In this document: piece by piece, positions 1 to 56,176 of the stretch | Position numbering within the stretch: the first letter of the stretch is position 1 | How the letters are laid out: every line of letters begins with the position of its first letter | Source: Escherichia coli | GTDB taxonomy: Bacteria; Pseudomonadota; Gammaproteobacteria; Enterobacterales; Enterobacteriaceae | Direction: 5' to 3' (one strand) | Length of the DNA: 64,000 bases | NCBI RefSeq assembly: GCF_046105845.1 | Contig: NZ_CP151004.1 | Position numbers and translations under genes: made by a program | Notes under the pieces: generated by a model | What the model saw: the letters and a program-made list of their open reading frames with translations, nothing else | What the model was told of the DNA's origin: nothing | The model's database searches: none

Positions 1-156
1 GCTAAATTAGCCACCGAACTGGCCTTGCAGGGGGCAGCAGGCAATATTGATCCGCGTGCCAGCCACTGTTTTATGCCGACGTTAGTGCGTCGTCATTCTG
101 TCGCAACGCGCCAGAATGCGGCGGCGATCACTAACTCAACAAATCTGGCGATGTAA
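1..156 (+). CDS. galS: 3' end of galS (LacI-family repressor), partial
   Basis: Open frame running to TAA at 154-156 translates ...[22 protein letters not shown]; sits immediately upstream of mglB as in E. coli. Confidence 0.75.
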
Positions 157-4111: not shown

Positions 4112-5347
4112 TTACAACGTTACCGGGTGTTCTTTCTCTCCCTTCTTAAACTTCACTTCTCCGAGATCAATACAACCCACCGGGCAGACGTGACCACAAA
4201 GCAGGCAACCAACACATTTCTCGGTATTACAATGCGGTGTACGGGTTTTCTCGCTCCATTCCATCGCCTGGTGACCGCCGTCGTAACAGGAAATATAACA
4301 GCGTCCACAGCCAACACATTTATCAAGATTGATATGGGGATAGACAATATAACTGCGGTCTAAATCTTCCGCGGGAACAATATTGTGATTCGCCAGACCT
4401 ACCATTTCCTGCAACGAATCAAACCCCTGATCGGCAAGATAATGTGACAACCCGCTCGCCATATCTTCCACTATCCGATACCCGTACTGCATAATGCCGG
4501 TGGTCACCTGCAACGTCGCTGCACCGAGCAATAAAAACTCTGCCGCATCTTCCCAGGTTTCAATACCGCCGATACCGCTGATCGGGAAATCGCGCAGCTC
4601 TGGATGGGTGCGCATTTGCTGAATAAAGCGCAGGGCGATCGGTTTTACCGCTTTACCGGAATATCCGGAAATACTCGATTTACCGTTAACGATCGGCATA
4701 CCGATTTTCTGATTAAGATCGATATTGGTGATGGATTTAACGGTGTTAATCGCCGCAATGCCATCTGCGCCGCCGCGCTTCGCCGCCAGCGCCACTTCGC
4801 ACATATCACCGATATTCGGCGTCATCTTCGCCAGCATTGGCAGCGTGGAACCACGTTTTACTGCCCGACAATATTTTTCTACCAGCTCCGGGCTTTGCCC
4901 GACATCGCTACCCATCGCATGAGAAGTCATTTGCGGACAGGAGAAGTTACACTCGATCATATCCGCGCCAGCTTCTTGCACCAGACGCGCCAGCTCTTCC
5001 CATTGCTGCTCATTTTCGCCCATGATTGAAGCGATCAATACTTTGTCCGGGTAATCTTCTTTCAGCCGACGCAGGGCGGCCAGATTATCTTCCAACGGAT
5101 GTTCAGCAATCTGCTCCATATTTTTGAAGCCGATAAAACCGGTATCTTCTTTCACCAGATGATCAAAACGCGGTGAGACTTCGTTGGCGATAAAAAAGCC
5201 GATCGTTTTAAACACCACGCCGCCCCAGCCAGTGTCGTAGGCTTTGGCACACATCTCATAGCAGTTGCCTACCGGCGAAGAAGAGAGGCAGAACGGGTTG
5301 GGAAACTTCACGCCGCAAAAAGTAATCGAAAGATCTTTCGTTAACAT
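4112..5347 (-). CDS. preA: NAD-dependent dihydropyrimidine dehydrogenase subunit PreA (Fe-S, DHODH-like)
   Basis: ORF with C-terminal 4Fe-4S ferredoxin cysteine clusters; start chosen at [10 protein letters not shown] to give 411 aa; overlaps preT stop. Confidence 0.92.
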
Positions 5348-15569: not shown

Positions 15570-15742
15570 AAAGTTCTTTTGTGTTGCATTGCTGGCGTAA
15601 ATGTCAGCAATGCAGCATTTCCTCACGATTCTCCTTTGACGATCGCACTTTTTGCTCGTTATGATGGCGTCGCTAGCCTCAGTAAATCCTTACTCCGGCG
15701 GTGCGCAACCCGTGCGCGTGAACCACTATCTGAATGCTCATC

Positions 15743-34971: not shown

Positions 34972-36060
34972 TCACGGCAGGCGGTGGCGAGCTTGATAAT
35001 AAGACTGCCAGTGAGCTTCTTTATGTGTGGCGACGCGCTGTTCGAAGTAACGGCGCAGACGCGCGCGATCTTCTTCGTTATCTTTGACGATGGTTCCGGC
35101 AATACAGTCCACCAGGTCGGCAGGCTCCCCCGCGCGATTCGCTAAAAACCAGGCGCGGACACCCACAGCATGGGCCACGTTAACGGCTTCAGCGGTGGAC
35201 ATAATCGCTGTCAGTGTATCCATTGACGTTTTCTTTTCGCCGTTGGCACGCAGATCGCGGAACGTGCGCACCAGTAATTCCAGTACCGCGTCAGGCACTT
35301 TATGCGGAATACCGCTATGGGCCAGCAAACGCGCCGAAGCACTGGCGACCAGTTCGAGCTCCTGGGCGAAATCCATAATCGGAAAGACAGTTTCAAAATC
35401 GAAGCGACGCTTTAGCGCAGCACTCATTTCATTGACGCCGCGATCGCGGGTATTGGCAGTGGCAATAATATTAAAGCCTTCCCGCGCATAGAGCTGACTG
35501 GCTTCACCAGTGAGTTCCGGCACCGTCATTACCCTGTCAGAAAGCATACCTAACAGACAGTCTTGTACTTCCAGCGGTGTACGCGTTATCTCTTCAAAAC
35601 GGACAATTTTGCCGTCGCGCATTCCCTGGTAAAGCGGGGCTGGGACCAGCGCTTCCGTTGACGGACCATGGTTGATAAGCAGGGCGTAGTTCCAGCCGTA
35701 CTTGATTTGATCTTCGGTGGTAGATGCGCCGCCCTGGATGGTTAACCCGGCATCGCCGCTAATAGCGGTTGCCAGTAATTCAGACAGGAGAGATTTTGCG
35801 GTACCCGGTTCCCCCACCAACATCAAACCGCGCCCGGTGGCAAGAGTGACTAACATACGTTCGACAGCGGAGGGACTAATCACCACTTTACGGCTAATAT
35901 TTTGCGCGCTATCGCCAAGGATAAAAGCACGGGCCGCAGGCAAACTTAACTGCCAACCGGGCGGGCAAGGTGCGTTATCATTTTGTTTTAATTTTGCCAG
36001 TTCATCGGCGTATAACACAGCAGCAGGCGGACGCTGCAGATGATTATTCTGCGGTGACAT
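34972..36060 (-). CDS. yehL: MoxR-type AAA+ ATPase YehL
   Basis: Start at MSPQNNHLQRP gives 362 aa; Walker A GEPGTAKS. Confidence 0.9.
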   Translation of the reverse strand: MSPQNNHLQRPPAAVLYADELAKLKQNDNAPCPPGWQLSLPAARAFILGDSAQNISRKVVISPSAVERMLVTLATGRGLMLVGEPGTAKSLLSELLATAISGDAGLTIQGGASTTEDQIKYGWNYALLINHGPSTEALVPAPLYQGMRDGKIVRFEEITRTPLEVQDCLLGMLSDRVMTVPELTGEASQLYAREGFNIIATANTRDRGVNEMSAALKRRFDFETVFPIMDFAQELELVASASARLLAHSGIPHKVPDAVLELLVRTFRDLRANGEKKTSMDTLTAIMSTAEAVNVAHAVGVRAWFLANRAGEPADLVDCIAGTIVKDNEEDRARLRRYFEQRVATHKEAHWQSYYQARHRLP

Positions 36061-36171
36061 ATATTCATCCCTGAAATGTATTAATGAAATAAACGATATT
36101 TTACGCGCAATAAATGTTTTGCGCATTAGTTGTTTGAACGGAAAATATCTGGAAAGCAGATCACAGTAAAT

Positions 36172-36254
36172 AAAAAAACCTGCTGGTGAGGCAGGTTCTT
36201 TTATTTACTATTTTCAGGCCCAACACCGCAGCCTGTGCAACATCGTGTTCCAAC
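36172..36254 (-). ncRNA. Candidate OrzO-like antitoxin sRNA, copy 1
   Basis: Minus-strand TATAAT at 36266-36261 with TTGCAA -35 at 36289-36284 (17-bp spacer); ends at hairpin CCTGCCTCACCAGCAGG followed by TTTTTTT (36195-36172). Confidence 0.45.
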
Positions 36255-36283
36255 GAACGAATTATAACCATCGGTGGACCCCG

Positions 36284-36311
36284 TTGCAATTAAGATAATG
36301 AGATTTATAAT
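36284..36311 (+). promoter_or_regulatory. Sigma70 promoter of toxin mRNA, copy 1
   Basis: TTGCAA-16 bp-TATAAT; predicted start near 36318 gives a 5' UTR of about 175 nt. Confidence 0.5.
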
Positions 36312-36492
36312 CCAGACGGTTGGGACGTTGCGCCGGATCGGACCAATTTCAAGTCCTGGCTACCGGACGGGTGGTGCTGCAGGTGGTGCCCTGATCCGGA
36401 GTGCAACATCGTGGTCCAACATACGTAAACCAGTATCGACAGGCAGTGTAAGGGTAAGGTGCTGGTGTTGCGCTCCTTAATAAGGAGAGCGG

Positions 36493-36582
36493 ATGGACAC
36501 GCAGACACAAAAGTTAACCGTGCTCATTGCTGTACTGGAGCTATTAGTGGCTCTGTTACGGTTGATTGATTTGTTGAAGTAA
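36493..36582 (+). CDS. zorO: Type I toxin, ZorO/ZorP family (29 aa), copy 1
   Basis: AGGAGAG Shine-Dalgarno then MDTQTQKLTVLIAVLELLVALLRLIDLLK*; which copy is zorO versus zorP cannot be told from sequence alone. Confidence 0.75.
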   Translation: MDTQTQKLTVLIAVLELLVALLRLIDLLK

Positions 36583-36604
36583 TGGGCAAATTGAAACGCA
36601 TCTA

Positions 36605-36634
36605 AGGGGGAATACCGCTTCCCCCTTTAATAAA
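36605..36634 (+). terminator. Terminator of toxin mRNA, copy 1
   Basis: AGGGGGAA-taccgc-TTCCCCCT stem followed by TTAATAAAAT. Confidence 0.4.
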
Positions 36635-36777
36635 ATGATTACATCTTCCATTAATTCACCTGATAACTTTTTTCTTATTTATAAATTCATCGATTTTATA
36701 ATTAACGTACCATTTCGCCGGGATGTGAATATTTATGGTGGCTATTGGCGAAAAATATCTGGAAAGTAGATCGCAGA

Positions 36778-36862
36778 AAATAAAAGAACCTGCTGGTGAG
36801 GCAGGTTCTTTTATTTACTACTTTGATGTTAAGTTACTGATAGTGCAACATGGCATCTCAAC
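36778..36862 (-). ncRNA. Candidate OrzP-like antitoxin sRNA, copy 2
   Basis: Minus-strand TATAAT at 36874-36869 and TTGCAA at 36897-36892 (17-bp spacer); hairpin at 36789-36805 followed by a U-rich tract. Confidence 0.4.
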
Positions 36863-36891
36863 GAACGAATTATAACCACCGCTGGACCGTG

Positions 36892-36919
36892 TTGCAATTA
36901 AGATAATGAGATTTATAAT
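36892..36919 (+). promoter_or_regulatory. Sigma70 promoter of toxin mRNA, copy 2
   Basis: TTGCAA-16 bp-TATAAT. Confidence 0.5.
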
Positions 36920-37100
36920 CCTGACTGTTGGGAAGTTGCGCCGGATCGAACCCATTTCAAGTCCTGGCTACCGGACGGGTGGTGCCGCAGGTAGTGCTCT
37001 GATCCGGAGTGCAACATGGCGACTCAACATACGTAAATCAGTATCGACAGGCAGTGTAAGGGTAAGGTGCTGGTGTTGCGCTCCTTAATAAGGAGAGCGG

Positions 37101-37190
37101 ATGGACACGCTGACACAAAAGTTAACCGTGCTCATTGCCGTACTGGAGCTATTAGTGGCTCTGTTACGGTTGATTGATTTGTTGAAGTAA
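37101..37190 (+). CDS. zorP: Type I toxin, ZorO/ZorP family (29 aa), copy 2
   Basis: MDTLTQKLTVLIAVLELLVALLRLIDLLK*; differs from copy 1 only at codon 4 (CTG Leu versus CAG Gln). Confidence 0.75.
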   Translation: MDTLTQKLTVLIAVLELLVALLRLIDLLK

Positions 37191-37209
37191 TGGGCAAATT
37201 GAAACGCAA

Positions 37210-37563
37210 CTAAGGGGGAAAACCGCTTCCCCCTTTAATAAAGTAATATTCTATTAGTTGGTTGAATATATTCTGTAGTTTACGATTAAAAATTGCTATT
37301 ACAGTTTCAGGTGATTCACCTCGTAATTTCCGCTCATCAATACACTCATCTCTTATATAAATCAACGCATCATTTATTAGCGGGTCAGCATCTTCTCGAT
37401 CACGTTGATGAAATGTTGGACGTAGCCGGAATCGCTCCAGTCGATAGACAGAACCTGTAAATAATTCAGAGCGTTTATGGATCTCAAGCCTGAAGGAAAA
37501 CGGCTCTTCAGGTACAGGGGCCTCATAATCGTAAATAGTGATCAGCTCTTTTTGCACGATCAT
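37210..37563 (-). CDS. yehK: Uncharacterised protein YehK
   Basis: 117-aa ORF starting MIVQKELITIYDYEAP; its last 10 codons lie inside the copy-2 terminator hairpin (37213-37242). Confidence 0.7.
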   Translation of the reverse strand: MIVQKELITIYDYEAPVPEEPFSFRLEIHKRSELFTGSVYRLERFRLRPTFHQRDREDADPLINDALIYIRDECIDERKLRGESPETVIAIFNRKLQNIFNQLIEYYFIKGGSGFPP

Positions 37564-56043: not shown

Positions 56044-56176
56044 AACCAAACGACTCGGGGTGCCCTTCTGCGTGAAGGCTGAGAAATACCCGTATCACCT
56101 GATCTGGATAATGCCAGCGTAGGGAAGTCACGGACCACCAGGTCATTGCTTCTTCACGTTATGGCAGGAGCAAACT
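56044..56176 (+). ncRNA. TPP (THI-box) riboswitch in the thiM leader
   Basis: Leader contains GGGGTGCCCTTCTGCGTGAAGGCTGAGAAATACCCGTATCACCTGATCTGGATAATGCCAGCGTAGGGAA; Shine-Dalgarno GGAG at 56167-56170 lies in the expression platform. Confidence 0.85.

Follow-up and report, generated by a model that had tools for sequence, protein, structure and literature searches.

Two whole modules of the zor–orz type I toxin–antitoxin system, 494 and 492 nt in length, lie head to tail at positions 36139-37240 of the Escherichia coli DNA analysed here, a 64,000-nt stretch of contig NZ_CP151004.1 that is referred to below as the window. It can be held with high confidence that the segment is a two-module zor–orz locus at the normal site of this system, between yehL and yehK, and that module 1 is of the P type (zorP–orzP) and module 2 of a third type. 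First described in 2010, the locus had its mechanism analysed in detail in studies of 2014 and 2017 (PMC3919570, PMC5397157), with a survey in 2024 covering distribution, copy-number variation, orphan antitoxins and the variable pairing region (PMC11264685). The system, its mechanism, the orphan antitoxin of K-12 and the third locus type are already known, and the finding is real rather than new.

Global alignment of 36139-36632 with 36749-37240 gives 90.3 % identity, and a repeat search returns direct repeats at 36139-36214/36749-36824 and 36235-36534/36843-37142 (92 % each, spacing 608-610 nt). The repeat unit is ~610 nt long, the final copy being shortened at yehK, and the transcribed module, from orz terminator to zor terminator, occupies ~468 nt. 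Identity between the two modules is unevenly spread along the alignment, at 73.5 % for the small RNA (sRNA) gene, 90.6 % for the promoter spacer, 93.1 % for the leader, 97.8 % for the open reading frame (ORF) and 96 % for the 3′ end; the spacer between the modules is less conserved than the modules themselves. Among 21 distinct modules from four Escherichia species, the stretch corresponding to 36425-36604 (late leader, ribosome-binding site and ORF) is at least 97 % conserved, and variation gathers in the target and along Orz, in both its seed and its body. The features of the segment are as follows.

36172-36254 (−): orz1, sRNA gene of OrzP type, ~83 nt; 5′ seed GUUGGAACACGAUGUUGCAC; terminator hairpin at 36177-36197 followed by a U run (from folding)
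36261-36311 (unstranded): back-to-back promoters of module 1; orz −10 TATAAT 36266-36261 (−), shared −35 TTGCAA 36284-36289, zor −10 TATAAT 36306-36311
36319-36492 (+): zor1 5′ untranslated region, 174 nt, with its start placed from the promoter; EAP/standby region +73..+102 at 36391-36420; GGAGUG at 36397-36402
36401-36420 (+): Orz target in the zor1 leader, GUGCAACAUCGUGGUCCAAC, at +83..+102; complementary to the Orz1 seed at 19 of 20 positions
36482-36487 (+): zor1 ribosome-binding site AAGGAG, at +164..+169; sequestered by a predicted CUCCUU/AAGGAG hairpin
36493-36582 (+): zor1 toxin ORF, 29 aa, MDTQTQKLTVLIAVLELLVALLRLIDLLK, equal to ZorO with L4Q (from the ORF list)
36604-36632 (+): zor1 3′ hairpin AAGGGGGAAUACCGCUUCCCCCUU then UUAAUAAA, putative terminator (from an inverted-repeat search)
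36633-36774 (unstranded): AT-rich spacer between the modules, whose last ~26 nt (36749-36774) repeat 36139-36164, the start of the duplicated unit (from the repeat search)
36782-36862 (−): orz2, sRNA gene of the third, Q-like type, ~81 nt; 5′ seed GUUGAGAUGCCAUGUUGCAC; +9..+11 = GCC
36869-36919 (unstranded): back-to-back promoters of module 2; orz −10 36874-36869 (−), shared −35 TTGCAA 36892-36897, zor −10 36914-36919
36927-37100 (+): zor2 5′ untranslated region, 174 nt; Orz target GUGCAACAUGGCGACUCAAC at 37009-37028; ribosome-binding site at 37090-37095 (from alignment with module 1)
37101-37190 (+): zor2 toxin ORF, 29 aa, MDTLTQKL..., identical to ZORO_ECO57 (from the ORF list and an exact look-up)
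37212-37235 (unstranded): hairpin AAGGGGGAAAACCGCUUCCCCCUU, the 3′ hairpin of zor2 on the plus strand, which also scores as a terminator on the minus strand and is crossed by the 3′ end of the yehK ORF

A first-pass annotation of this DNA had described much of the same anatomy, and on these points it was borne out. Its two tandem copies of ~490 bp and ~90 % identity are the two modules above; its 29-residue peptides, preceded by a Shine–Dalgarno sequence and a 5′ untranslated region of ~175 nt, are found with AAGGAG 5 nt 5′ of the ATG in both modules and a leader of 174 nt; and Q4 versus L4 is, as it had stated, the sole difference between the two ORF translations. The divergent small-RNA region that it placed upstream is recognized by Rfam as OrzO-P, at 101.3 and 90.2 bits, and the location between yehL and yehK is confirmed by the flanking genes, this being also the site in the O157-like strain 142 and, indeed, the position of zor–orz in every locus fetched. 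Further small ORFs overlap the sRNA, promoter and leader sequences; no sign of coding was found in them, no dedicated test having been made.

The two sRNA genes match RF02083 (gathering score 60) over its full length, orz1 at 36247-36172 (minus strand, E=5e-17) and orz2 at 36855-36782 (minus strand, E=1e-14), and both matches lie far above chance level; besides orz1 and orz2, the Rfam scan of the 64-kb window gave no antitoxin matches. The fold of orz2 has a z-score of −4.6. From the −10 boxes, the Orz 5′ ends would fall at 36254 and 36862, and with orz1 starting at 36254 its +9..+11 reads ACG, which is the specificity triplet (V1) published for OrzP (PMC3919570). Applied to strain 142, the same rule returns ACG in OrzP and GAA in OrzO. 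As a separate observation, Orz2 (36778-36862, minus strand) also resembles the Rfam ohsC model, though below threshold (35.4 bits, E=0.005, gathering score 50), which hints at distant kinship or convergence of the Orz and OhsC antitoxins, both from divergent type I systems.

Transcription of both strands appears to be set by a compact arrangement, in which a palindromic −35 TTGCAA is common to the two promoters of a module, with the rightward TATAAT 16 nt off and the leftward TATAAT 17 nt off. A promoter scan of the segment found exactly these four sites, with 10 of 12 matches per strand in module 1. The TTGCAA/TATAAT hexamers are more than 99 % conserved (Table 3 of PMC11264685), and the promoters of the window match them. 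The zor transcripts would start at 36319 and 36927, 8 nt past the TATAAT boxes, and with the starts placed there the 174-nt leader, the ribosome-binding site, the EAP target and the V1 coordinates of EDL933 all fit. The ribosome-binding site of zorO, for example, is published at +164..+169 (PMC5397157), the identical position to that in the window, and the Orz target sits at the 3′ end of the +73..+102 region. At the other end of the transcript, the 3′ hairpin of zor1 was missed by the terminator scan because its U tract is short. Leader length is seen to vary in strain 602354, where 12 nt, GGTGGTGCTGCA, are duplicated in tandem within the zor leader of module 1 (fetched locus ~2880-2910), extending it to 186 nt; this strain has matches to the toxin 60-mer at four places, only two of them at the yeh locus.

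Each sRNA is predicted to pair with the mRNA of its own module. The 5′ 20 nt of each Orz are complementary to the leader of the same module at 19 of 20 positions, as 6 + 13 nt with one mismatch. Predicted duplex energies, computed from the Orz 5′ 25 nt only (whole-Orz versus whole-leader prediction gave artefactual long-range structures), are −34.8 kcal/mol for Orz1 on the zor1 leader versus −22.6 for Orz2, and −34.4 kcal/mol for Orz2 on the zor2 leader versus −21.3 for Orz1. Over the four natural seed/target types listed below, 95 % of cells pair, and compensatory double changes occur in 5 of the 20 pairs, at positions 5, 6, 9, 10 and 11, i.e. V1 and its neighbours. This covariation score was reached by none of 500 shuffles, and sliding the partner by 1-3 nt lowers pairing to 26-40 %. 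Judged from this complementarity, the two modules are orthogonal, each Orz being matched to its own zor.

A further relationship concerns the leader itself. The 5′ end of the zor mRNA (36319-36340), GUUGGGACGUUGC..., and the Orz seed (36235-36254, minus strand), GUUGGAACACGAUGUUGC..., share a GUUGG...GUUGC frame, and the invariant flanks of the target, GCAAC...CCAAC, can pair with this frame in either molecule; the variable part of the target, at +90..+97, falls where the intramolecular fold leaves the leader unpaired. On this modelling, Orz looks like a trans-acting substitute for the leader's own 5′ mask.

To place the two modules, sequences were aligned from 13 E. coli loci taken across the similarity ranking and from 3 loci of other Escherichia species. 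The pairing elements fall into the following types.

P type: Orz seed GUUGGAACACGAUGUUGCAC, zor target GUGCAACAUCGUGGUCCAAC
O type: Orz seed GUUGGUACGAAAUGUUGCAC, zor target GAGCAACGUUUCGUACCAAC
Third type: Orz seed GUUGAGAUGCCAUGUUGCAC, zor target GUGCAACAUGGCGACUCAAC
Relative of the third type (Z0117EC0117, UPEC132): Orz seed GUUGGGGCGCCAUGUUGCAU, zor target as in the third type

Modules of one type are 93-100 % identical to each other, and those of different types (P, O and third) 86-91 %; the relative of the third type stands at 94 % to that type itself. Module 1 is of the P type, at 93-98.5 % to P modules and 98.5 % to that of TUM1226. Module 2 is of the third type, being 99.8 % identical to module 2 of PCN033 and 98.5 % to the modules of 158274-3 and 602354, versus 88.2 % to the O-type module of strain 142; its Orz seed differs from that of OrzO at 5 of 20 positions, and the target has changed to match. 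A peptide with A20S has been named ZorQ, and zorQ/orzQ has been reported as a third type of locus, using a query bit score >650 (PMC11264685). Module 2 probably corresponds to zorQ/orzQ at the nucleotide level, with a peptide equal to ZorO. Neither the Q4 peptide nor L4Q, the module-2 seed or any zorQ sequence turned up in a search of that survey's supplementary text, which named zorQ in a table title only.

The toxin ORFs are the most conserved parts of the two modules, and it is here that the sole unusual feature of the locus is seen. The peptide of zor2 is ZorO itself (ZORO_ECO57), a sequence on record for at least 1000 contigs, and that of zor1 agrees with it at 28 of 29 residues; a T3S variant (ZORP_ECO57) and an A20S variant are likewise on record. 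The L4Q substitution in zor1 results from CTG to CAG at 36502-36504 and is a private allele: no perfect copy of the 60-mer carrying Q4 is present in 5426 complete E. coli genomes, where the nearest hit has one mismatch, and an exact look-up did not find the peptide among ~15 billion proteins. Both Zor peptides possess ALLRL at residues 20-24, which is essential for toxicity in ZorO, whilst the N-terminal 13 residues are dispensable (PMC6669753). Because residue 4 lies in this dispensable part and ALLRL is intact, the Q4 toxin is expected to be functional and is probably still toxic.

By homology with zorO–orzO of EDL933, expression of each module may be pictured as follows. The shared palindromic −35 would serve two divergent sigma-70 promoters, yielding an Orz sRNA of ~82 nt and a zor mRNA of ~310 nt with its 174-nt leader. 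While the mRNA is full-length, its first ~22 nt would pair with +74..+102 and the ribosome-binding site would be held in a hairpin, giving poor translation. Loss of the first 28 nt, which in zor1 would leave a 5′ end at 36347, would free +73..+102 (the EAP/standby region) and allow more translation of the 29-aa peptide, which would then enter the inner membrane and cause depolarisation. Pairing of the Orz 5′ ~20 nt with +83..+102 would in turn block the standby site and invite RNase III cleavage, switching the toxin off. For zorO–orzO this model comes from experiment, which established the self-repressing leader, the removal of 28 nt, depolarisation of the inner membrane with lower ATP, and pairing of the first 18 nt of OrzO with EAP, leading to a translation block and RNase III cleavage with no need for Hfq (PMC3919570, PMC5397157, PMC6669753). 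Toxicity on overexpression and RNase III-dependent, Hfq-independent repression by Orz were shown for EDL933 zorO–orzO only (PMC3919570). In the window, the sequence anatomy, homology, complementarity, covariation and distribution are observed directly; transcription starts, processing, toxicity, RNase III dependence and any physiological role are taken over from the literature.

Structure prediction is in keeping with this model in part. Pairing of +1..22 with +74..102, and a CUCCUU/AAGGAG hairpin around the ribosome-binding site, are seen in the minimum free energy fold of each leader and again in a consensus fold computed from 17 distinct natural leaders. Folding of the leader after removal of the first 28 nt gave low-confidence ensembles in which the minimum free energy structure is an alternative long-range helix, and the opened EAP state was not confirmed by this prediction.

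A number of points count against the interpretation offered here. The folding energies of the two leaders are no better than those of shuffled controls (z = −1.2 and −0.2), and the consensus fold of the 17 leaders shows no double compensatory changes in the leader helices, because the leader sequences are too conserved; structural support therefore rests on agreement with published probing. Each Orz–target duplex carries an internal mismatch at seed position 7, making its 19 pairs discontinuous, and although 19 pairs lie within the published threshold (at least 17, one mismatch), that threshold was measured only on OrzO–zorO. The transcription starts, processing, toxicity and repression proposed for the window are carried over from EDL933 experiments, and the likely effect of L4Q is predicted from work on ZorO. 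Finally, the equation of module 2 with zorQ/orzQ derives from co-occurrence of its nucleotide type with the A20S peptide in two sampled strains.

With regard to distribution, counts were taken across the 5426 complete E. coli genomes. Of these, 5232 contain at least a portion of the segment, and the toxin part (36440-36632) is present in 3394 (~63 %), in genomes of all kinds, at 5230 places with a median of 2 per genome, 4 of these places being on plasmids. The difference between the two genome counts indicates that about a third of genomes keep an orz remnant only, in line with the ~30 % of 'orz-only' strains reported previously (PMC11264685). Third-type orz, by a 60-mer of this type, occurs in 855 genomes, and O-type orz in 1262. 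The 306-nt yehL–yehK spacer of K-12 (BW2952, fetched locus 2462-2767) belongs to this remnant class, retaining an intact orzP, both promoters and ~30 nt of the zorP leader, with no toxin; its alignment with the window jumps from ~+30 of the zorP leader to the sequence just before yehK, which marks a deletion junction. As K-12 keeps orzP and the start of the zorP leader, it is a deletion derivative and not an empty site, and its orphan antitoxin, OrzPmg, is expressed (PMC11264685). IS1 copies are also found at the locus. In strain 158274-3, IS1A (fetched locus 153-850) occupies the place of yehL and module 1, and in SW07091 an IS1 (fetched locus 1603-2300) replaces the whole zor–orz region together with yehK, suggesting that deletion mediated by insertion sequences is one route of loss.

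Outside E. coli, Escherichia whittamii carries P and O modules in the same order at the same yehL–yehK site, and Escherichia sp. E1V33 and Escherichia sp. MOD1-EC7003 each have one module there, of O and P type, respectively. The modules cluster by type, not by species. Relative to module 1 of the window, the P module is 96.6 % identical in E. whittamii and 94.7 % in MOD1-EC7003, and in the same comparison the flanking genes show 93-94 % (yehL), 87 % (yehI) and 82-89 % (yehK). The presence of zor–orz at one site in three other Escherichia species implies that the locus is ancestral and has been lost repeatedly. The published accounts cited here place zor–orz in E. coli and Shigella only, or surveyed E. 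coli only. A scan with one exact 20-mer, from the ribosome-binding-site hairpin, had no match in E. albertii, E. fergusonii, E. marmotae, E. ruysiae or an E. coli representative, which is not evidence of absence.

Taken on these sequence comparisons, the duplication and the P/O split either predate these species or were passed between them by recombination, and the locus is ancestral either way. We lean slightly towards the former, in which the P, O and Q classes would be ancient lineages older than the divergence between E. coli and the cryptic Escherichia species, E. whittamii included, kept orthogonal by seed–target co-evolution and shuffled as cassettes at one site; the combinations encountered are P+Q in the window, P+O in O157 and E. 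whittamii, and O+Q in GPEC1354. Inter-species recombination at the zor–orz locus is the rival account.

Beyond the anatomy, the first-pass annotation had likened the segment to two loci of E. coli O157:H7, ZorO–OrzO and ZorP–OrzP, and had taken it as an accessory insertion, absent from K-12, in a strain resembling enterohaemorrhagic E. coli (EHEC). The zor–orz identity stands and module 1 is indeed of the P type, but module 2 is not of the EDL933 zorO–orzO type (V1 is GCC, and identity 88 %). That the window holds the exact EDL933 arrangement, zorP–orzP plus zorO–orzO, in an EHEC-like strain is extremely improbable. The same site is used, there are two modules in the same order with the P module beside yehL, and the module-2 peptide equals ZorO; yet module 2 resembles the third type (98.5 %) far more than the O module of strain 142, and the five positions at which its seed departs from OrzO are matched by changes in the target. 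The locus as a whole is 92.2 % identical to that of the O157-type strain 142 versus 97.6 % to that of PCN033, and a toxin part carried by 63 % of the complete genomes, whatever the kind of strain, does not single out EHEC. The window itself, in three large chunks, is uniformly 98.0-98.5 % identical to the best of the complete genomes and exceeds 98.5 % with none, though O157:H7 is in the set; on these identities the source is an E. coli-like lineage outside the complete-genome set, and certainly not O157:H7. As to K-12, the toxin genes are missing there as proposed, but orzP, both promoters and part of the zorP leader are not. This retained sequence, with its deletion junction (PMC11264685), is difficult to reconcile with a recently acquired accessory island in an empty, K-12-like yehL–yehK site, and such an origin can hardly be credited, even though the toxin genes are missing from K-12 and from about one E. 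coli genome in three, and IS1 copies lie at the site in some strains. E. whittamii has P+O in the same order, two further Escherichia species (E1V33 and MOD1-EC7003) have one module at the site, modules group by type rather than by species, plasmids hold few of the places, and there are no integrase genes or direct target repeats. A mobile-element origin was rejected on the strength of the retained K-12 orzP, the site shared across Escherichia and the missing integrase.

It might alternatively be supposed that one or both modules have decayed, for instance through inactivation by L4Q or through repression lost to seed mismatches, and in favour of this the L4Q allele is found nowhere else, each duplex has its internal mismatch and toxin genes are often lost at the locus. 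This too is very unlikely, as the promoters, ribosome-binding-site hairpin, ATG, 29 codons, ALLRL, terminators and seed–target pairing are intact in both modules, the position-7 mismatch is common to all P-type modules, including that of the EDL933-like strain 142, and L4Q lies within the N-terminal residues that ZorO can do without (PMC6669753). Pseudogene decay was rejected on the grounds that all functional elements are intact in both modules. The reading of the segment as two whole zor–orz modules, P and third type, at their ancestral site is the one carried forward.

The genes on either side of the locus are as follows.

34972-36060 (−): yehL, AAA ATPase, downstream of orz1 and co-directional with it; annotated in the E. 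coli records that match; start at 36060 from alignment with the 1089-nt K-12 gene
37210-37563 (−): yehK, 117-aa allele (from the ORF list); yehI is next

The orz gene reads toward yehL and stops ~112 nt short of the yehL start codon, so that a role for Orz in yehLMPQ expression is conceivable. On the other side, a C-to-G change at the 3′ end of yehK (37210-37260) abolishes the stop used in CAVP746 (106 aa), and relative to O157 and K-12 the 54 bp with the usual stop are missing. With its stop lost, the yehK ORF reads antisense through the zor2 terminator hairpin, ending ...YYFIKGGSGFPP. The 117-aa allele is an annotated protein in GPEC1354 and a pseudogene with an internal stop in PCN033, and yehK is frameshifted in several further strains. 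The window (1-64000) is otherwise colinear with the mglA-dld-bglX-yehLMPQ...yehB-metG-apbC region of E. coli, and Rfam places two other elements in it above their gathering scores, a Peptidase-S11 RNA motif at 15658-15738 (plus strand, 72.8 bits) and a TPP riboswitch at 56046-56142 (plus strand, 71.2 bits).

What the present locus adds is an unrecorded L4Q toxin allele and the P+Q combination of modules, direct evidence for the locus and for P and O types at the same site in other Escherichia species, and a clean natural covariation test of sRNA–mRNA pairing. The presence of zor–orz is no indicator of EHEC. In all E. coli RefSeq records examined, PGAP leaves the zor ORFs and orz sRNAs unannotated, with features given as 'none', yehK or hypothetical protein only. 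Should the P, O and Q classes prove to be ancient lineages, zor–orz would be an ancestral, selectively maintained feature of Escherichia beyond E. coli and Shigella, and a module that is mostly non-coding would be conserved no less than the genes around it.

Amongst described systems, zorP–orzP of EDL933 (z3290; ZORP_ECO57; RF02083) is the counterpart of module 1, which adjoins yehL, has the identical seed GUUGGAACACGAUGUUGCAC and target, and shares 96.8 % identity with the P module of strain 142 across 468 nt; seed and target are also identical to those of the K-12 orphan orzP and of module 1 in strain 142. The peptides differ, with T3 and Q4 in module 1 versus S3 and L4 in EDL933 ZorP (T3S relative to ZorO). 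Module 2 resembles zorO–orzO of EDL933 (z3289; ZORO_ECO57) in its peptide, which is 100 % identical, in adjoining yehK, and in sharing the architecture, promoters, 174-nt leader and ribosome-binding-site hairpin. It departs from zorO–orzO in its seed, GUUGAGAUGCC... versus GUUGGUACGAA..., with V1 GCC versus GAA, and in its target, GUGCAACAUGGCGACUCAAC versus GAGCAACGUUUCGUACCAAC, the latter having 18 nt of continuous complementarity to OrzO. As to zorQ/orzQ, the probable counterpart of module 2, seed and target of module 2 are identical to those of the A20S-encoding strains 158274-3 and 602354, whilst its peptide has A20 and is hence identical to ZorO. OrzPmg, the orphan antitoxin of K-12 MG1655 (PMC11264685), is matched in that the K-12 spacer aligns with 36127-~36349 of the window, but K-12 is without everything from ~+30 of zorP through the second module, whereas the window has both modules whole. 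More distantly, tisB–istR1, shoB–ohsC and dinQ–agrB are likewise divergently encoded type I pairs of E. coli, which are activated by 5′ processing and involve standby-site competition (PMC5397157); they sit at other chromosomal sites under other regulators (LexA in the case of tisB), and no significant sequence homology of toxin or sRNA to zor–orz is shown here.

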